Positions 13,947-30,385 of a DNA stretch of 64,000 nt are shown here, piece after piece. The notes under the pieces were generated by a model, which was given only the letters and a program-made list of their open reading frames with translations, did no database searches and was not told where the DNA came from. Source of the stretch: an uncultured Bacilli bacterium (GTDB taxonomy: Bacteria > Bacillota_I > Bacilli_A > RF39 > UBA660); NCBI GenBank assembly GCA_934129885.1, contig CAKOWU010000004.1, positions 857 to 64,856 of the forward strand, in the 5' to 3' direction. Position 1 is the first letter of the stretch; each line of letters starts with the position of its first letter. Position numbers and translations under genes: made by a program.

Positions 13947-14858
13947 GTGATAAAGATGATAAAAGTTGGCATTCCAAGAAGTTTATTTTATTACTATGAT
14001 GAAAAAATATGGCAAAACTTCTTAAGCTACTTAGACATACCATATATAATAAGCCCAGTAAGCAATAACGAAATTCAAAAAAACGGTATAAACATCGCTG
14101 GCGACGAAATGTGCCTCGCCTTAAAAAATTATCTAGGTCATATAGATTACTTAAAAGATAAATGTGATTACATACTAATACCTAGAATTGATAACTACAA
14201 AATAAATAACCAAACATGCACAAACTTTCTCGCTGCTTATGACATCGTAAATAATCTGTATAACATAAAAATCTTAAATTATAACATCGACATTCAAAAT
14301 CATGAAACTTTAAAAAAAGGCTTAATCAAAATAGGCAAAGAATTAGGGTTTACCAAAAAAGATGCCCTATATGCCTATTATTATTCTGCCAAGGAATACA
14401 AAAAATATCAAAAAAAACTTATTAAAGAAACAAACCAAAGTCTAAATGCAAATAAAACCAAAATACTTATCGTCTCTCATCCATATATCATATATGACGA
14501 GCTAATAGGTAAGGACATCATAAAATACCTAAAAAAAGAAGATATAGAAATAATATACTCGGATGAATTTGATAAACAAAAAGCCTTGAAAGCCAGTAAA
14601 ACATTAGTTAAAGATCTATATTTTCTGCACGCTAAAGAAAACATCGGAGCTATTAATCTAGTCAAAGATCAAATAGACGGTATAATATTCTTGTCTGCTT
14701 TTCCGTGTGCCATAGACTCCCTTGCAAATGAACTCGTCATGCGTAAAATAAAAATTCCCTATATCAATATATTAATAGATGACACTTCCGCCTTTGCGGG
14801 ATTAGAAACCAGACTAGAAAGTTTCACCGACATGTTAAAGGAGAAAAAACATGGATAA
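13947..14858 (+). CDS. 2-hydroxyacyl-CoA dehydratase-like / activase-associated (DUF2229-type) subunit
   Basis: It is translationally coupled to the next two genes, and the family resemblance is moderate. Confidence 0.45.
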   Translation: MIKMIKVGIPRSLFYYYDEKIWQNFLSYLDIPYIISPVSNNEIQKNGINIAGDEMCLALKNYLGHIDYLKDKCDYILIPRIDNYKINNQTCTNFLAAYDIVNNLYNIKILNYNIDIQNHETLKKGLIKIGKELGFTKKDALYAYYYSAKEYKKYQKKLIKETNQSLNANKTKILIVSHPYIIYDELIGKDIIKYLKKEDIEIIYSDEFDKQKALKASKTLVKDLYFLHAKENIGAINLVKDQIDGIIFLSAFPCAIDSLANELVMRKIKIPYINILIDDTSAFAGLETRLESFTDMLKEKKHG

Positions 14859-15909
14859 AATATCATACCCTTTAATGGGCGACTATAGTGTGCCCACTAA
14901 ATACCTGCTTACCCATATATTAAACATTGAAGTCATAACCCCGCCGCCAATCACCAGTAAAACAATTGCCCTGGGATCAAAATATAGCCCCGATATAATC
15001 TGCACACCCTTTAAATACACCTTAGGCACTATGTTAGAATCCATAGAAAAAGGCGCAAATATACTAATCCAACTAGGCGGCGGCTGTAGATACGGATACT
15101 ACGCCTATCTTCAAGAACAAATATTAAAAGATCTAAACAAAGACGTAAAAATAATAAACCTAGTCACAAAAGGTAAACTAGATGCCATAAAAATATATAA
15201 AGAACTAAAAAAAATATCCAAAATAAACATTTTCAAAACCCTTTACCACTCATTCATAACCATAAAAATGGTTAAATATATGGACCAAATAGATGCTTAT
15301 ATAAGAGAAAATATCGGTTTCGAACAAAAAAAGGGTTCCTTTGAACTTTTAAAATATAAAATGCTAAAAGACTTCAGCACCACCACATCATATAAAGACC
15401 TAAAAAGAAAATATAAATACTATAACAACAAAATTAAAAGTGTTCAAGTTCGTAAACCAGAAAATAGACTAAAAGTAGGGATAATAGGAGAACTATATAC
15501 CGTTATGGAACCATATGCTAACTATGACCTAGAAAAATCCCTCGCCAACCATAACATCGAAATAAAAAGATTTACAAATGCCCATTACCTGTTAATAGAG
15601 AAAAAAAGAGAAGTAAAACACTATTTAAAATACACCAAAGAATATATCAAATATAAAATGGGTGCCGATGCCGCCGATAACATCTGTAGAACTAAGTACC
15701 TTTGTGAACAGGGCTACGATGGAATAATTCATATTAAATCATCCTTCTGCACTCCAGAAATTGGTGCCATGCCCATTATCAGCAAAATCGCCGATCAATA
15801 TAACGTCCCCGTACTTTTCCTAACTCTCGATATCCATAATGGCGAAGAAGGTATCAAAACTCGATTAGAAGCATTTTACGATATGCTAGAAATGAGGAAA
15901 ACAAAATGA
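14851..15909 (+). CDS. 2-hydroxyacyl-CoA dehydratase-like subunit (HgdA/B-like)
   Basis: It overlaps both the upstream gene and the downstream activase gene, and contains Cys-containing motifs. Confidence 0.45.
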   Translation: MDKISYPLMGDYSVPTKYLLTHILNIEVITPPPITSKTIALGSKYSPDIICTPFKYTLGTMLESIEKGANILIQLGGGCRYGYYAYLQEQILKDLNKDVKIINLVTKGKLDAIKIYKELKKISKINIFKTLYHSFITIKMVKYMDQIDAYIRENIGFEQKKGSFELLKYKMLKDFSTTTSYKDLKRKYKYYNNKIKSVQVRKPENRLKVGIIGELYTVMEPYANYDLEKSLANHNIEIKRFTNAHYLLIEKKREVKHYLKYTKEYIKYKMGADAADNICRTKYLCEQGYDGIIHIKSSFCTPEIGAMPIISKIADQYNVPVLFLTLDIHNGEEGIKTRLEAFYDMLEMRKTK

Positions 15910-16841
15910 AAAATACATATCTAGGAGTAGATATAGGATCAATATCCACCAAAGGCGTCATTATCGACGAAGATAATAACATCATCACATCCGCCTACAT
16001 ATGGACCGAGGGTAATCCTGCTGCAGCCGTTAGAAAACTAATAAAAATGCTTAAAAAGAAATTACCTAAAGACTGCCATGTCAGAGGAATTGGTACCACC
16101 GGCAGCGCTAGAAAACTAATTGGCCTGCTTTTAGGAGCCAACATTGTCAAAAATGAAATAACAGCCCACGCCATAGGCACTTTAACATTTTACCCAAACG
16201 TTAGAACAATATTAGAAATAGGAGGGCAAGACTCCAAAATAATACTGTTAAAAAACGGCATCATAACAAATTATGCCATGAACACCTTATGTGCCGCCGG
16301 AACAGGGGCCTTTCTTTCAAGTCAGGCTAAACGTCTCGGTATGGACGTCAAAGAATTTAGTAAATACGCCTTAAAATCTAATAACCCTGTCAAAATTGCC
16401 GCTAGATGTACCGTCTTCGCTGAGTCTGACCTAGTCCATAAAGCCCAAGTGGGTTATCCAAAAGAAGACATCATTGCTGGACTATGTAAAAGCGTCGTTT
16501 TAAATTATCTAAACAATGTCGGCAAAGGAAAAAAAATAGAAGGCCCTATAATATTCCAAGGCGGCGTATCCAAAAATGCCGGTGTCGTCAAATACTTCGA
16601 AGAAATTTTGGGTGAGCCTATAATCGTTGATGAAAACAGCCATCTCATGGGTGCCATCGGTATCGCCGTCCTCGCAAGAAAAAATAAAATTGGAAAAACC
16701 TATAACCTCGAGCTTGACAAAGTGTCATTCGAAACCAAAGCCTGCGAATGCGATAAATGTCCAAACAATTGCGAAATCTTAAGCATTTATAGAAATAAAA
16801 AACAAATAGACTCTTGGGGCAGTAAATGCGGTCGTTATTAA
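15906..16841 (+). CDS. CoA-substrate-specific enzyme activase (BadF/BadG/BcrA/BcrD ATPase family)
   Basis: The N-terminus 'LGVDIGSISTKGVII' is an ASKHA fold, and the C-terminus 'CECDKCPNNCE' is a Cys cluster. Confidence 0.75.
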   Translation: MKNTYLGVDIGSISTKGVIIDEDNNIITSAYIWTEGNPAAAVRKLIKMLKKKLPKDCHVRGIGTTGSARKLIGLLLGANIVKNEITAHAIGTLTFYPNVRTILEIGGQDSKIILLKNGIITNYAMNTLCAAGTGAFLSSQAKRLGMDVKEFSKYALKSNNPVKIAARCTVFAESDLVHKAQVGYPKEDIIAGLCKSVVLNYLNNVGKGKKIEGPIIFQGGVSKNAGVVKYFEEILGEPIIVDENSHLMGAIGIAVLARKNKIGKTYNLELDKVSFETKACECDKCPNNCEILSIYRNKKQIDSWGSKCGRY

Positions 16842-16847
16842 ACAAGA

Positions 16848-16875
16848 CAAAATTCTTGTTTTTTTCTTTGCCCAC
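16848..16875 (+). terminator. Rho-independent terminator
   Basis: The sequence is 'AACAAGacaaaattCTTGTTttttttc'. Confidence 0.5.
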
Positions 16876-17063
16876 ACAACCACAAAAGTAAAGGTATAAG
16901 CCAAAGTACTTCAAAACAAAATAGTAAAACTATATATTAAGGCCTAAAGATATAACGTTTCCAAAATAAAAAGTCAATATCTATTAAATTGTAGTGCCAC
17001 TTAAATGTTATACTTAACTTGCCAGTGAGGAATTATCTAAAAAGTAAAGGAGGATTACCATAA

Positions 17064-17225
17064 ATGAATAAATTAGAAAAGATACAACAAGAAATCGCAG
17101 AACTGAGTCAATATAGACAAATACTAATCGCGCTAAAAGATATAGAAAACGTTAAAGAAAAAACTAAAGAAGAAAAACCAAAAGTAAAAAAATTATCTTT
17201 AAAGGAAGAGAAACGTGAATATTGA
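17064..17225 (+). CDS. Small charged coiled-coil protein (53 aa). It is the first gene of a three-gene operon and overlaps the AAA gene start by 11 nt.
   Basis: A strong RBS (aaaggagga) sits 9 nt before the ATG. The sequence is 'MNKLEKIQQEIAELSQYRQILIALKDIENVKEKTKEEKPKVKKLSLKEEKREY'. It is absent from the ORF track because it is shorter than 60 aa. Confidence 0.4.
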   Translation: MNKLEKIQQEIAELSQYRQILIALKDIENVKEKTKEEKPKVKKLSLKEEKREY

Positions 17226-18204
17226 AAATCCAGAAGAACTAATCAAAAAAATTGATAAAAGAATTGCCGAGCTAGAAGCCAAAGAAAAAGGTAAAGATAA
17301 CCCAAAAGAAGAAAGCCTAGAAAACGAAACAACCGCAAAAGTCATGGAAATGATCGAGACCATTAAAGCCGAAAACCTAGAAATTAGTCTTCAAAAACTA
17401 AATAACCTAATCGGCCTTACTGAAGTTAAAGAAGAAGTAAATAAACTAACAAACTACTTAAAGTTTTGTAAAAGAATAAAAGGAAAATCATCACTAGATA
17501 GGCTAAACCTAAATATGATTTTTAAAGGAAGCCCAGGAACTGGTAAAACCACAGTCGCAAGAATAATCGCTGGTATCTTATATAACCTAGGTTACCTTGA
17601 AAGCAAAGCCTTTATCGAAACAACACCTAGAGACTTTATAGGAGAATATATAGGACACACAAGCATCAAATCAAAAAAATTAATAGATAAATATAAAGGT
17701 GGCGTCATATTCGTAGATGAAGCCTACGGTTTCGTTCATGAAGAAGGGGAGTACAACTTTGCTGATGAAGCCATAGTAGAAATTATAAAAGAAATGGAAA
17801 CCAAAGAAACAGTATTTATCTTCTCTGGTTATCCCAAAGATATGGATAGATTTATTGAACTAAATTCTGGAATAAAATCTAGAGTAGGGTATCATATTGA
17901 TTTTAAAGACTATACAGAAGAAGAACTTTCAGAAATATTTAAATTCAAACTAACAAAATCAAATTTTCAAATTACGGAAGACGCCTATGAAAACATAAAA
18001 AATATTATAAAAATAAAAAAGCAAGAAAAAAACTTTGGTAATGGACGTATGATAGATAATTTGTATGACGAAGTATTACTAGAACACGCATCTCTTAATT
18101 ATGATAACAAAAACGAAAGTGAACTATTAATAATGAAAAACGAAAGTGTCGGTGTCGTCATGACTAGAGCACAACAAAAGCAAAGAAGGGGATATTTTGA
18201 GTAA
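17215..18204 (+). CDS. AAA+ ATPase of the SpoVK/CbbX family
   Basis: 'MIFKGSPGTGKTTVARIIAGIL' (Walker A) and 'GGVIFVDEAYG' (Walker B) are present, together with 'FIFSGYPKDMDRFIELNSGIKSRV', which is typical of SpoVK/CbbX. It has a GTG start. Confidence 0.8.
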   Translation: MNIENPEELIKKIDKRIAELEAKEKGKDNPKEESLENETTAKVMEMIETIKAENLEISLQKLNNLIGLTEVKEEVNKLTNYLKFCKRIKGKSSLDRLNLNMIFKGSPGTGKTTVARIIAGILYNLGYLESKAFIETTPRDFIGEYIGHTSIKSKKLIDKYKGGVIFVDEAYGFVHEEGEYNFADEAIVEIIKEMETKETVFIFSGYPKDMDRFIELNSGIKSRVGYHIDFKDYTEEELSEIFKFKLTKSNFQITEDAYENIKNIIKIKKQEKNFGNGRMIDNLYDEVLLEHASLNYDNKNESELLIMKNESVGVVMTRAQQKQRRGYFE

Positions 18205-18736
18205 TGTAATTGTAAACAACATATATGATAAACTCGTAGAAGATAGAATTATATTTATTAGAGGAGAAATCAATAACGCTACCGCAAGCGAAGTTGTTGC
18301 AAATCTTTTATACTTAGACTTTATCAGCAATGATGACATAACTATATACATAAACTCACCAGGCGGACTTGTTACCGGTGGACTTATGATATACGACACC
18401 ATAAAATATCTAAAATCAGATGTTTCCACCGTTGGTATTGGTTTGTCCGCATCAATCGCCGGAATAATACTCGCATCTGGTACCAAAGGCAAAAGAAAAA
18501 TCTTACCTCACGGCAAAGTCATGTTTCATGAAATATCTACAGATACTAGTGGTAAACTAACAGATATCCTGCTAGCCACCAAAGAAGCAAAAAAAACAAA
18601 CGATATTTTATTAGATATCATTGCTAAAAACAGTGTCATAAAAAAAAGTGAACTAAAACAAAGACTTACAACTGATTTCTATATGGATTGACACGAAGCA
18701 CTAAAATATGGTATTGTAGACAAAATTGTCGAATAA
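18197..18736 (+). CDS. ClpP-family serine peptidase paralog with an in-frame TGA at 18689-18691. The reading frame continues for a further 14 conserved codons.
   Basis: The ClpP catalytic Ser ('GLSASIAG') and His ('KVMFHEIS') are present. After the TGA the frame encodes 'HEALKYGIVDKIVE', which matches the canonical ClpP C-terminus 'A.EA.xYGLID.V'. It overlaps the AAA gene by 8 nt. Confidence 0.65.
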
Positions 18737-18753
18737 AAAAGGACTGCATACCT

Positions 18754-19293
18754 TTACGCAGCCTTTTTAACTCCCCGAGATCCATCTTGCAATTGATATA
18801 CCTTCGGTCTTTCTAATGGTTCAGCCGAAGGAATAGTTAAATCACCATTAGTATTCATTAAATATTCTTTATATTCATTTATTTGAACCAAAATATCTTT
18901 AAGTAAAGCAAGATCCTGAGTATCATTCGTTTTTCCTGCTAAATTAATTAAGGAAGAAAAAAGCGTTCTAAATTTAGAAGGTGATATCCCAATAACGTTT
19001 TTAAACTTGTTTGAGTATTGTTCCAAACCATTAAAATGGTTATTAAGTGCAATATATAAAATAGTCTCTTTAGTGAAAATAAGCGGATCTATAGAGTTAT
19101 ATACTCGGCACTCATTAACAAAACTAACTGGAGTAAGACCAGTATACTCTTTAAACTGCCTAATCAAATAAAACTTGTTGTAATGAAAAATCTCTTCAAG
19201 TTCATCAGAACTAACATTCCTATCTATATTGTCAAGTAAATACATACAAATCTGTTGCATTAGTAACCTATCCATAAAACCCCCACCACTCAC
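18754..19293 (-). CDS. AraC-family HTH transcriptional regulator (DNA-binding domain only)
   Basis: 'FHYNKFYLIRQFKEYTGLTPVSFVNECRV' is a characteristic AraC HTH. Confidence 0.7.
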   Translation of the reverse strand: MSGGGFMDRLLMQQICMYLLDNIDRNVSSDELEEIFHYNKFYLIRQFKEYTGLTPVSFVNECRVYNSIDPLIFTKETILYIALNNHFNGLEQYSNKFKNVIGISPSKFRTLFSSLINLAGKTNDTQDLALLKDILVQINEYKEYLMNTNGDLTIPSAEPLERPKVYQLQDGSRGVKKAA

Positions 19294-19355
19294 CTAAAAT
19301 ATACTACATAAAAAAATTATTGTCAAATTAGTAATAAGAAGTAAGGAGTGAAAAC

Positions 19356-21086
19356 ATGAAAGAAACAATAAAAAATTTAAACTTCGCCTGGAAATATGCG
19401 AAAGGACAAAAGAAAAACATTATCTTATACTTAATTCTTAATGTTCTTTTAATGATAATTAGTATAATTGTACCAATAATAAGTGCCCAAATAATTATTC
19501 ATCTGACAAATAGTGAACTCACTAGACTTTTTTATCTGGCACTAGTCCTATTAATCGTTGAAATAACAAGAAACATTATAAGAACATTTGCTACCAAAAA
19601 TGTTCAAATAATATATAGAGAAGCATTTACTAAAATTCAAACCAGTTTAGGTAGTGAAATTTTAAAAATAAATAATCAAACTTTAAATAAACATGGCAGT
19701 GGTCTATTTATTCAGCGTCTTAACGTAGATACAAGTAGAATTTCCGACGTGTTTGGCAATTTAATTTGGTACCTATTACAAATAATGACCAGTATAGGTA
19801 TATTCGGCGCAATATTCATTATAAATAAAGTTATGTGTCTTTGTATAATTATTATGGTTTTAGTTATTTACTTAATAGAGAAAAAAGAAATAAATACTTA
19901 TAACGAAAATGATAAAGAATATAGAAAAGAAGCCGAAAAGATATCAGGCTTTACAAGCGAACTAGTAAGAGGTGCTACCGATATAAAAATGCTCAGTGCT
20001 GAAAATAGTTTTGTAAGTGCGCTAAATCATAAAATGAGAACATTTAACCAAAAAAAATATAAAATGCAAATGACCGAAAGAAAATACGAATTTCTAACCA
20101 GTAGCGTACGTGATTTAAACCTATTTGTACTTTTAATACTTTTTGTATTTATGATTTCTAACGGTTATCTAACTGTGGCATCTGCTCTTGTTATTTATAA
20201 CTATTTCCCAGAAACAACTAACGTCGCTACAAATATCGGTTATATGCTTAAATGTTTAAAAGACTTTAACCTTTCATCATCTAGAATAATAGAAATATTT
20301 AATAGTAAAGAATTTGAAAAAGAAAAATTTGGTACTAAACATTTAAACCATGTTGACGGTAAATTTGAATTTAAAAAGGTAGACTTCTCATTTGGAGAAA
20401 GCAAGGTGCTTAATAACCTAAATTTCAAAGTAAACCCTAATGAAACAGTCGCTTTTGTCGGTAAATCTGGTGCCGGTAAAACAACAATATTTAATCTTTT
20501 GTGTAAAATGTATGATGCAGATAAAGGTGAAATACTAATAGACGGTATTAACATAAACGAACTTGATAGAAAATCAGTACGAGATAACATTACAATAATT
20601 TCTCAAAATCCATATATATTTAACCTTTCGATAAGAGAAAATCTAAAATTAGTTAAAGAAGATTTAACCGAAGAAGAAATGATCGAGGCTTGCCATTTAG
20701 CCTGTTTAGATGAATTTATAAATAATCAAAAAGATAAATACGATACCGTAGTAGGAGAGGGCGGAGTAACCTTATCTGGTGGTCAAAGACAAAGGCTTGC
20801 TATTGCTAGAGCCCTCGTACAAAAGACAGAAATAATTCTCTTTGACGAAGCTACCAGTAGCCTAGACAACGAAACTCAAAAAGAAATAAGTCAGGCTATA
20901 AATAACCTAAAAGGAGAATATACCATTTTAATAATCGCTCATAGACTGTCAACCATAATAAATAGTGATAGAATACTAGTTGTAAATAATGGCCAAATAG
21001 AGGCCAGTGGTACCCACGAAGAACTGCTAAAACAAAGTGTCTTTTATAGAAAACTTTATAATACCGAATTAGAACAAAAAAAGTAG
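19356..21086 (+). CDS. ABC transporter, fused permease/ATP-binding protein (ABCB-type exporter)
   Basis: It has six predicted TM segments and an NBD with 'GKSGAGKTT', 'LSGGQRQRLAIARAL' and 'ILFDEATSSLD'. Confidence 0.85.
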   Translation: MKETIKNLNFAWKYAKGQKKNIILYLILNVLLMIISIIVPIISAQIIIHLTNSELTRLFYLALVLLIVEITRNIIRTFATKNVQIIYREAFTKIQTSLGSEILKINNQTLNKHGSGLFIQRLNVDTSRISDVFGNLIWYLLQIMTSIGIFGAIFIINKVMCLCIIIMVLVIYLIEKKEINTYNENDKEYRKEAEKISGFTSELVRGATDIKMLSAENSFVSALNHKMRTFNQKKYKMQMTERKYEFLTSSVRDLNLFVLLILFVFMISNGYLTVASALVIYNYFPETTNVATNIGYMLKCLKDFNLSSSRIIEIFNSKEFEKEKFGTKHLNHVDGKFEFKKVDFSFGESKVLNNLNFKVNPNETVAFVGKSGAGKTTIFNLLCKMYDADKGEILIDGININELDRKSVRDNITIISQNPYIFNLSIRENLKLVKEDLTEEEMIEACHLACLDEFINNQKDKYDTVVGEGGVTLSGGQRQRLAIARALVQKTEIILFDEATSSLDNETQKEISQAINNLKGEYTILIIAHRLSTIINSDRILVVNNGQIEASGTHEELLKQSVFYRKLYNTELEQKK

Positions 21087-21130: not shown

Positions 21131-22198
21131 TTATCTATATTTTATTGTCTTCCTTAATGTAGGACCTTGCTCGCTTGAATTATTATTCGTGTTCTCATCA
21201 GATTCTTCGTCAATTTCTGCCTTATCAAACGTCTTGTCATAGTCATAACGTGCTTGCTTAATCTCTTGGATAGCATTTTCTAAACATTCAAGTTCCTGCT
21301 CACTAAATATAACCTGCGGATACACAGAAAAAGTATATTTTCTAGCACTATCTTCTGGTAGTTCTTCCATAATACTACCCATAACCTCTAAATGCTCTTT
21401 TTTATTTGCATCTCTATTTAAATTAGGGATCCCTATAATTGCGACATATTCATTATTTAATTTTCCTGTAATATATCCAAATTTAACTTCTTTGCCATGA
21501 GTTTTAACTGTAAGTGCATCATTAAGTTTTTCAATTTCATTTACTGTATATCCAAGAGGTAATAGTTCCTCATGACGAATATGTATCTTTCTTATATTAC
21601 TACTATTCGCATCATTGGCTTCATACGTAATAACTTCTGGTTCAACTTGAACATCACTCTTATCGTTATTGTTCGCAGCAATTTCTTCCGCATTCTTACT
21701 ATCCGTATCCTCATTTATATTAACTTTCGCATCGCTTTGAATATTTTCATAGATAAAACTTTCATCTCTATTGTAAGAAACATCATCGTGATTTAAAGCC
21801 GTCGTAATCGCTCCAACGTATATAAGTGCATCAATTTGGCTTTTTAGTGACACAAACTTGTGCATCTCCTCACGACTCATGGGAATAAGTGCCTTGTTAA
21901 ATTCTGGACTTTTCATCATCTTCCTTTTCATATTTGCTCTATGTACGCACGCACCTAGTAAATTTACAATAGGAATAAATGTTATAACAGCTCCTAAAAA
22001 CTTCTTAACATCATTTGCCTTGCTAACCTTAAATTCAGCTATCTTTTGCTTTTCAAAATACTTATCCAAAAGCCTTTTGTCATACTTATATCCTTTGCTT
22101 GCAATATTCGTTAAACAGTCATACTTAGCGTTCATCTTTAAGGCTGCAGAAAAAATAACACTCGCAATTTCCATCGCAAGCCCCAATACTATATTCAT
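21131..22198 (-). CDS. Hypothetical membrane protein with an acidic C-terminus
   Basis: Two N-terminal TM helices are predicted. A likely start at 'MNIVLG' has a GGGGGAGG RBS. It is co-directional with the downstream HTH gene. Confidence 0.45.
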   Translation of the reverse strand: MNIVLGLAMEIASVIFSAALKMNAKYDCLTNIASKGYKYDKRLLDKYFEKQKIAEFKVSKANDVKKFLGAVITFIPIVNLLGACVHRANMKRKMMKSPEFNKALIPMSREEMHKFVSLKSQIDALIYVGAITTALNHDDVSYNRDESFIYENIQSDAKVNINEDTDSKNAEEIAANNNDKSDVQVEPEVITYEANDANSSNIRKIHIRHEELLPLGYTVNEIEKLNDALTVKTHGKEVKFGYITGKLNNEYVAIIGIPNLNRDANKKEHLEVMGSIMEELPEDSARKYTFSVYPQVIFSEQELECLENAIQEIKQARYDYDKTFDKAEIDEESDENTNNNSSEQGPTLRKTIKYR

Positions 22199-22303
22199 AC
22201 AAAATCCTCCCCCAGCAAAATTGCTAGGAAATATAATAACACATTTTAAAATAAAAAGCAAATTTTGATAAAAAAATTAAATTTCTTCTTTATATAATAT
22301 TAA

Positions 22304-30244: not shown

Positions 30245-30385
30245 TATAATTTAATTGCTTGAAAGCCGTAGACAGTAGGGATGAAAATTTAAAAATCCTA
30301 CCGAGGAACTTACTTTATTTAAGTGTTTTCGCTCTGTCTACTTACTAGACAGAGTTTTTACGGCATTAATAAAATAAAGGAGGTG
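30245..30385 (+). promoter_or_regulatory. rplJ leader (L10-leader-like autoregulatory region) with extended -10 promoter TGcTATAAT and a terminator/antiterminator hairpin
   Basis: The sequence 'gttatgctataat' is followed by the structured 'gccgtagacagtagggatg...cctaccgagg' and the hairpin 'cgctctgtctacttactagacagagttttt'. Confidence 0.45.

Follow-up and report, generated by a model that had tools for sequence, protein, structure and literature searches.

A stretch of 64,000 nucleotides (64 kb; hereafter the window) from an uncultured Bacilli bacterium of the RF39 lineage (contig CAKOWU010000004.1, positions 857–64,856) carries an operon in which an AAA+ ATPase of the SpoVK/CbbX type is translationally coupled to a paralog of the ClpP peptidase, and the existence of this pair as a conserved module is well supported. 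The module recurs in uncultured gut Firmicutes, and the conserved unit is larger than the three genes of the operon, as it includes a regulator, a box in the upstream DNA, and a small protein. In kind it belongs with the AAA+/ClpP proteases; its mechanism we infer. A preliminary description, made from the sequence alone, knew of no description of the three-gene architecture, and our literature searches on SpoVK/CbbX with ClpP, on HbYX with ClpP, and on ClpP-paralog neighbourhoods likewise gave no prior description; nothing linking the SpoVK-CbbX-EccA clade with ClpP was found in the searched library. The parts of the module are located as follows:

16973–16989, + strand: operator-like box GTCAATATCTATTAAAT (family consensus GTCAWTWTTGTTTAAAAAA), with its 3' end over the operon promoter's −35 position
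17064–17225, + strand: small open reading frame (ORF), 53 aa, with a GGAGG ribosome-binding site (RBS) 9 bases 5' of its ATG (table-11 ORF listing and direct reading)
17215–18204, + strand: AAA+ ATPase ORF, 329 aa, GTG start, 11-nt overlap with the small ORF
18197–18691, + strand: ClpP-paralog ORF as it stands, 164 aa, TTG start within the last ATPase codons, 8-nt overlap
18754–19275, − strand: AraC/XylS-type regulator, 173 aa, of MarA/SoxS size (Pfam HTH_18)

The 53-aa ORF with a strong RBS and 11-nt coupling to the ATPase, as given in the preliminary description, was confirmed by the ORF listing and by reading the sequence, and the ClpP-family gene does overlap the ATPase gene by 8 nt (TTG start at 18197).

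Adjacent AAA+ and ClpP genes with an identical 8-nt overlap occur in 13 sequence lineages with unrelated flanks (47–74% AAA+ identity), so that the coupling is kept over about 50% protein divergence. Neighbourhoods of ATPase homologues at 74, 62, 54, 55, and 51% identity, each in a different flank, have a common arrangement of small ORF (none in the 74% lineage, L001–L003), ATPase, a ClpP of 179–183 aa, and an AraC HTH_18 regulator of 142–170 aa. When a metagenome scan was seeded solely by the ATPase motif FGNGRM[IV]D, ClpP was directly downstream in all eight loci recovered, and the AraC gene was present in all four that had enough flank. As a negative control we used 80 generic SpoVK/CbbX-like loci (≤43% identity) from a genome scan with the full ATPase alignment; among the matches listed, none of the 80 has an adjacent ClpP, and at one locus a ClpP lies at a distance of 4.8 kb. 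P0192, the nearest canonical ClpP at 53% identity, is encoded by itself, amid unrelated surroundings. Co-occurrence of the two genes elsewhere, which the preliminary description had named beforehand as a check, is thus borne out, and the juxtaposition, whose fortuity it had tied to homologues never being adjacent in other genomes, is not fortuitous.

The peptidase matches the Pfam family CLP_protease (PF00574) with 179.8 bits against a gathering threshold of 20.2, over profile positions 6–180 of 182 when an in-frame TGA (see below) is read through. It fails the housekeeping equivalogs TIGR00493 (158 bits vs. a cut-off of 308.6) and PRK00277 (185 vs. 249), and has a weak match to a ClpP-related head-maturation protease (69 bits, cut-off 120). 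We aligned 14 locus-derived sequences and 120 database matches, using E. coli numbering (sequence identical to 1TYF), and the alignment splits cleanly into about 40 (41) paralog clusters and 79 canonical sequences. The peptidase is thus, judging by its sequence, a member of a distinct paralog clade and not the housekeeping clpP, contrary to the possibility raised earlier of a sole housekeeping copy behind an unrelated spoVK. Its catalytic triad, S97/H122/D171, is invariant in the 14 locus-derived paralogs and in every full-length database cluster among the 41; the truncated fragments P0153, P0188, and P0205 stop short of His122 and/or Asp171.

Two features separate the paralog clade from canonical ClpP most clearly. 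Only 8–11 residues precede the I19-equivalent in most paralogs, as opposed to 15–40 (typically 17–25) in canonical sequences, and for this reason the axial pore/hairpin segment (E. coli residues 1–19, ‘xPxVIE..GER’) is missing; a few gene calls are longer, with extensions that are not ClpP-like. In canonical ClpP, the axial loops take part in communication with ClpX and ClpA. Position 112 is Lys in 41 of 41 paralog clusters vs. 1 of 79 canonical sequences. In addition, Gln123 is replaced by Glu/Asp and Pro124 by Leu/Ile/Val (Pro is kept in two clusters). Most positions of the pocket that binds acyldepsipeptides (ADEP) and IGF loops are hydrophobic in the paralogs (L23, L48, Y62, F82, I90, M92, L114, and L189; residue list from bioRxiv 10.1101/2023.03.01.530711). 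A change of Tyr60 to Thr/Lys was considered as a docking-pocket signature and dropped, as position 60 varies in canonical ClpPs too.

For the ATPase, Pfam reports AAA and AAA_lid_6 domains, and its Walker A motif is GSPGTGKTT. NCBIfam scores are 208 bits for SpoVK, 193 for CbbX, and 157 for EccA, all far under the curated equivalog cut-offs (423 bits in the case of SpoVK, TIGR02881). The closest solved structure is CbbX, a known tail-threading hexamer, by both phmmer (E 1e-46) and Foldseek (E 1e-22, TM 0.67–0.77), with FtsH ATPase domains next. Family scans and closest structure therefore agree with the SpoVK/CbbX-like assignment in the preliminary description. Orthology to SpoVK does not hold, given the score below cut-off and a helical N-terminus: the AlphaFold2 (AF2) model, with a predicted local distance difference test (pLDDT) score of 87.4, has two N-terminal helices without strands, a core, a helix at 309–324, and a tail at 326–329 with pLDDT <50, unlike the beta-strand-rich N-terminal domain described for SpoVK (PMC11513918). 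The N-terminal part said to be unique measures about 58 aa rather than about 100, as the CbbX alignment starts at residue 59–60.

Residues 59–293 of the ATPase are colinear with CbbX without any insertion, and the CbbX alignment has no inserted [ILMV]-G-[FL] loop of the IGF/LGF type found in Clp/Hsp100 unfoldases; the sole IGL tripeptide (residues 66–68) belongs to the clade-wide ‘LIGL’ core motif, which is common to CbbX. Invariant in 22 homologues are the Walker A Lys (K111), the Walker B Asp-Glu (D168/E169), the pore-loop Y-[IV]-G (Y145/G147), the sensor-1 GY (G205/Y206), N217 (with K/R221), the Arg finger (R223), and the sensor-2 Arg278. Among these, G205-Y206, N217, and R278 correspond to the markers for the SpoVK-EccA-like clade, which are sensor-1 GY, an Asn upstream of the first Arg-finger position, and the sensor-2 Arg (PMC11513918). 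With motor and pore-loop residues intact, the ATPase appears from its sequence to be threading-competent. According to the most recent survey of the SpoVK-CbbX-EccA clade, no peptidase is associated with it, from which the survey argues that the members are assembly chaperones, not degradation motors (PMC11513918); being translationally coupled to ClpP, the subfamily described here is an exception to it. A representative search with the ATPase alignment was unusable as a census of the clade, as the best 150 of 12,388 clusters (E ≤ 1e-30) were giant multi-AAA proteins with summed domain scores. Within this SpoVK/CbbX-like superfamily (P0321–P0470) many proteins are giant, up to 3,823 aa, with 3–8 tandem AAA modules.

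The ATPase ends in ...RRGYFE, i.e., Y-F-E-COOH. A hydrophobic-(x)-F-[EDGAV] ending (e.g., GYFE, GGIFD, GGMxF[GE]) is found in 102 of 111 single-domain top matches and in none of 9 multi-domain ones, and no ClpP lies downstream of the tail-less relatives in the four examined (P0021, P0023, P0033, and P0100). To our knowledge, ClpP is docked only through internal IGF-type loops, and its partners so far are Clp/Hsp100 ATPases. In its flexible, hydrophobic-aromatic-x form (Y-F-E, I-F-D, M-x-F-G/E), the tail resembles the HbYX tails by which PAN, Rpt, and Mpa bind the 20S core, and the HslU tail that binds HslV. In classical-AAA geometry the C-terminus lies on the side that faces the protease, and in the 20S alpha ring a Lys pairs with the terminal carboxylate; by analogy, the invariant ClpP Lys beside the pocket could pair with the carboxylate of the ATPase tail. 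Docking on ClpP through a tail of HbYX or HslU type is therefore plausible, as we infer from its sequence. Unlike the HbYX and HslU systems, the peptidase is ClpP, and the tail codons double as its RBS and start. Signs of selection on the protein itself are the use of both TAT and TAC for the Tyr and a conserved Met/Ile before the Phe. Everywhere ClpP retains a weak TTG start, although with a Tyr as penultimate residue the start would be ATG.

In the window itself the ClpP frame is interrupted near its end:

18689–18691, + strand: in-frame TGA of the ClpP frame, in TGA-C context; homologues have Ser/Pro/Cys/Gly at this codon
18692–18736, + strand: post-TGA segment of 14 codons (HEALKYGIVDKIVE) and a TAA at 18734–18736, matching the conserved ClpP C-terminal helix

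The preliminary description had the gene end at 18736, which is attainable only by read-through of the TGA; the ORF stops at 18691, 15 codons early. With the TGA masked, the 179-aa product matches CLP_protease through residue 179 (E 6e-53), and a tblastn alignment with E. coli ClpP spans 18218–18730, i.e., beyond the TGA. An alternative code, with TGA as Trp or Gly, was ruled out: the 57 long ORFs in the window use TAA 42 times, TAG 9 times, and TGA 6 times as stop, several of the TGA stops being in ATGA-type overlaps, and all 87 Trp codons are TGG, so that the genetic code is standard. The ClpP DNA of the same-species contigs L093, L094, and L095, from different samples, is identical to that of the window, TGA included (3 of 3 fetched). 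Public 179-aa versions (cluster P0151 and the L095 gene call) read the TGA as Trp and are code-4 gene-calling artefacts. Applied to this AT-rich contig, the code-4 model also extends the small ORF through its own TGA in some public calls. As the sister lineage P0152 (80% identical) has Cys at this codon, and other homologues have Ser, Pro, or Gly, the sequences point to a TGY-to-TGA nonsense change. TGA-C is a leaky stop context. The peptidase in the window's species is therefore truncated, or a low-level product of read-through; its activity is impaired or depends on read-through.

The regulator is a MarA/SoxS-like member of the AraC family (PF12833 HTH_18, 45.5 bits vs. a cut-off of 33.6), with a double helix-turn-helix (HTH) and no ligand or dimerisation domain. 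Its AF2 model contains the seven helices of the HTH domain, a further helix at about 118–139, and a tail ...ERPKVYQLQDGSRGVKKAA, with pLDDT <50 for residues 137–172. The tail has a basic motif, [KR]P[KI][VI]K.L, and in 12 of 19 distinct compiled tails ends in [KRN][AVCT]A-COOH, a terminus that looks degron-like. With the exception of L011/L012, all lineages whose flanks are long enough have a homologue of the regulator beside the AAA+ gene. The preliminary description was thus right that an AraC regulator and an ABC (ATP-binding cassette) exporter adjoin the operon, and mistaken in treating the regulator as a mere neighbour rather than as part of the conserved unit.

The box is about 17–19 bp long, bipartite and asymmetric, in which it resembles a marbox. 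It occurs once per locus, on the + strand, and precedes either the small ORF or the AAA+ gene; by exact pattern it is present in 20 of 26 module loci; L098, L105, and L106 have near-matches by eye, and L097, L099, L100, and L103 are fragments with too little upstream sequence. The intergenic DNA around it is unconserved, and it is retained where the ClpP or regulator gene is missing. No other exact match occurs in the 64-kb window, where matches with two mismatches are at chance level. In L008 (3148–4810), the regulator gene and box are tandemly duplicated; the two regulator copies (142 aa) are identical and enclose an 86-aa ORF. L008 is a very common gut species with contigs >1 Mb, and SpoIID and SpoIIID are nearby. 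Further elements around the operon are:

17006–17014, + strand: candidate extended −10 (TGtTATACT) of the operon promoter, by direct sequence reading
18742–18763, no strand assigned: hairpin flanked by T-runs on either side, where the ClpP and AraC genes converge (terminator scan, − strand call, and sequence reading)
19298–19326, − strand: sigma-70-type, near-consensus promoter of the regulator gene, TTGACA-17-TATATT (consensus scan, 11 of 12 matches)
19356–21086, + strand: ABC exporter, a half-transporter with fused transmembrane and nucleotide-binding domains, divergent from the regulator gene (Pfam)

The consensus scan skips the operon promoter, in which it finds no good −35 hexamer; this fits an activator-dependent promoter, as we suppose the operon promoter to be. 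Terminators had been said to bound the operon on both sides. Downstream, the hairpin at 18742–18763 is likely a bidirectional terminator, called by the scan on the − strand only (the AraC gene side), with the + strand T-run seen by eye; upstream, there is only an AT-rich hairpin at 16847–16871, seen by eye and absent from the scan calls. Orthologue-level ABC exporters (47–63% identity, full length) lie beside the module in the window, in L004 (9081–10832), and in L105 (1541–3280), making 3 of about 17 lineages; the others have none at the module. The MarA-like regulator may also control the exporter, which would then be an accessory or regulon member rather than part of the core.

The small protein combines an amphipathic helix (LEKIQQEIAELSQYRQIL) with a basic motif, KPKVKKL, and homologues of 36–64 aa, mutually alignable, are present in 10 lineages. 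In hhalign, its profile matches columns 123–163 of the AraC profile (probability 84%, E 7e-6), in contrast to a probability of 1% against the AAA+ profile, which served as control. A hidden Markov model (HMM) of 19 regulator tails scores 22.3 bits on the small protein of the window vs. −0.1 ± 2.0 for 300 shuffles, and places 6 of 10 small proteins above all 300 composition-matched shuffles. Because its profile matches the tail and not the ATPase, and given the HMM scores, we regard the small protein as a stand-alone copy of the regulator tail, without the HTH domain and without the terminal Ala motif. It has no similarity to the N-terminal helix of the ATPase. The closest syntenic relatives, L001–L003 (74% ATPase identity), are without the small ORF and also without the first N-terminal helix of the ATPase, a joint loss that may mean that the two interact; L008, which has the small ORF and lacks the helix, is a case to the contrary.

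Several known systems share parts of this design. Like ClpXP, ClpAP, and ClpCP, the module encodes an AAA+ hexamer with a pore-loop Tyr together with a Ser-His-Asp ClpP, and a regulator with a degron-like C-terminus would be a plausible substrate. Unlike them, its ATPase comes from the classical-AAA SpoVK-CbbX-EccA clade and has no IGF/LGF insertion, its ClpP carries Lys112 and is without the N-terminal axial loop, and the two genes overlap by 8 nt. The likeness to CbbX, SpoVK, and EccA consists in the best sequence and structure match (CbbX) and in the clade signatures, and makes a single narrow client likely. The ClgR and PopR loops of Streptomyces clpP operons, in which a regulator is known to be degraded by Clp, are similar in that a regulator of a clpP operon is the proposed substrate. 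MarA and SoxS are themselves small AraC-family regulators without ligand domains that are controlled by proteolysis, in their case by Lon. In contrast to both ClgR/PopR and Lon-MarA/SoxS, the module, known here from its genes, packs a regulator, a decoy-like tail copy, a private unfoldase, and a private ClpP into a portable unit. MicroProteins such as plant LITTLE ZIPPER are short proteins that consist only of a transcription factor's interaction module and are encoded under the control of that factor; the small protein is likewise the tail module of the regulator alone, is likely under the regulator's control, and differs from them in being bacterial and operonic with a protease.

Our preferred reading, to which we give somewhat less than an even chance, is that the module is a self-contained, autoregulated proteolysis circuit composed of regulator, box, tail-copy small protein, CbbX/SpoVK-clade motor, and ClpP paralog. 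The small protein, ATPase, and ClpP form a translationally coupled operon, which would be driven by an otherwise weak, box-bearing promoter. The ATPase hexamer would recognise the helix and tail common to the regulator and the small protein, thread the regulator, perhaps the small protein as well, through its YIG/YVG pore, and hand the chain to the loop-less ClpP ring, on which it would dock via its flexible C-terminal hydrophobic-Phe-x tail and not via an IGF loop. The outcome would be negative feedback on the regulator, with the small protein acting as co-expressed competitor, buffer, or adaptor; in lineages without ClpP, the ATPase would serve as a pure remodeller. There is precedent for such feedback in ClgR and PopR, activators of clpP operons that are Clp substrates (PMC9765437).

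A number of points weigh against this circuit. ClpP has been lost in four lineages (L011/L012, L104, L105, and L106) that keep the ATPase and box, three of which also keep the regulator and/or small ORF, and in the window's species ClpP is truncated by the TGA; given both, the ATPase must have a ClpP-independent role. The ATPase tail has diverged in each of the ClpP-less lineages. Its Arg/Gly codons, however, are the ClpP Shine-Dalgarno sequence (AGGGGA/GGAGG), and ‘TTT G..’ provides the ClpP TTG start, so that translational coupling by itself would also lead one to expect the tail to be conserved, and to be lost together with ClpP; the ‘GG’ part varies in amino acids, and it is the purine run that is conserved. 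In Streptomyces ClpP2, a Ser at position 60 does not preclude the binding of Clp ATPases. The terminal Ala motif of the regulator tail is not universal, the small ORF is missing from the closest relatives (L001–L003), and the role of the regulator as substrate is purely conjectural. In one of the ClpP-less loci, L104, there is an abrupt switch to high GC after the ATPase, and the contig may be chimeric.

The more specific proposal of a new class of ClpP protease, in which a classical-AAA CbbX/SpoVK-clade unfoldase would dock by a proteasome-like tail with its carboxylate paired to Lys112, and in which the client would be a MarA-like activator tuned by a microprotein copy of its degron tail, seems to us rather unlikely in its entirety. 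We are about equally doubtful of the main rival, a reading in which the core is regulator, small protein, and ATPase, with the ATPase as a ClpP-independent remodeller that switches the regulator by unfolding it or by stripping off the small protein, and with ClpP as an auxiliary: either a free, gate-less peptidase for the clearance of released peptides, or a subunit that joins the housekeeping ClpP barrel on which ClpX/ClpC act. ClpP cores of mixed composition are well known in the form of ClpP1P2 hetero-oligomers, and the same four losses of ClpP, after which ATPase, box, and mostly regulator and/or small ORF persist, fit an auxiliary peptidase, as do the premature stop in the window's species and a tail motif for which the RBS and start codon that overlap it offer an explanation. 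The characterised members of the clade, CbbX, SpoVK, and EccA, are moreover narrow-target chaperones with no peptidase partner (PMC11513918). What argues for a working ATPase-ClpP pair instead is the strict 8-nt coupling over about 50% protein divergence, a paralog stripped of the axial loops through which ClpX and ClpA communicate, the clade-specific invariant Lys beside the docking pocket, and conservation of the tail at the amino-acid level (Tyr as TAT/TAC; Met/Ile before Phe).

Explanations from sporulation, defence, phage, or chance lack support. No link to sporulation, as suggested in the preliminary description, was found, and the ATPase is no SpoVK orthologue. A mobile stress, conflict, or defence device, such as an abortive-infection protease or a toxin-antitoxin-like system in which small protein and regulator tail restrain a destructive ATPase-ClpP pair, is improbable. 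It would account for the unrelated flanks in related bacteria and for the L004 module, which lies amid RhuM, Fic, HD, NUDIX, and UvrD-like genes, and type II antitoxins, to which the regulator would then be likened, are DNA-binding proteins whose disordered tail binds a partner. The contexts are nonetheless mostly of housekeeping genes, no relative of the module occurs in 2.9 million viral contigs, and no integrase or repeats were seen at its borders; in PADLOC-DB 2.0, the ATPase has only weak generic AAA matches (IetA, E 1e-6, and TRIP13), and ClpP, the small protein, and the rest have none, which leaves the earlier suggestion of a defence role without a match. Least credible of all, to the point of being nearly negligible, is the chance placement of an ordinary housekeeping clpP behind an equally ordinary spoVK, or a phage prohead (ClpP-like) protease. 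The best NCBIfam names, SpoVK and ClpP, and the weak head-maturation match would be in its favour, but adjacency in 13 lineages vs. none of the 80 generic relatives among the matches listed, scores far below the equivalog cut-offs for both proteins, a paralog clade cleanly apart from canonical ClpP, and the solitary setting of P0192 contradict a chance pairing, and for a prohead protease there are neither phage genes in the window nor viral contigs with relatives.

As a conserved CbbX-type ATPase-ClpP pair, the module is a direct counter-example to the statement in the clade survey that no peptidase is associated with it (PMC11513918). If tail docking is true, it would be a new mode of ClpP engagement, with a bearing on ADEP-type ClpP drugs and on the evolution of AAA+ proteases. 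Together, regulator, operator, tail-mimic, unfoldase, and peptidase make a compact, tractable model of regulated proteolysis in abundant uncultured gut Firmicutes, and the repeated loss of ClpP, along with the TGA in the window's species, provides natural ‘mutants’ for the contribution of the peptidase.

The window is chromosomal, with a GC content of about 32%. ORFs of 1218 and 1211 aa at 33.7–41.0 kb are presumed, by size and position only, to be rpoB and rpoC. An ordinary L10 leader (Rfam RF00557, 65 bits) at 30248–30370, 5' of the presumed rplJ-rplL-rpoB-rpoC region, was the sole match in an Rfam scan of the whole window. Beyond the exporter, on the − strand at 21131–22261, lies a 376-aa ORF whose C-terminal half is acidic and Asn-rich; neither Pfam nor PADLOC gives a match for it. 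Directly upstream of the module (13947–16841) is a three-gene DUF2229 / HGD-D / BcrAD_BadFG cluster, resembling a 2-hydroxyacyl-CoA dehydratase and its activase, which is syntenic in L001–L003 and L093–L095.

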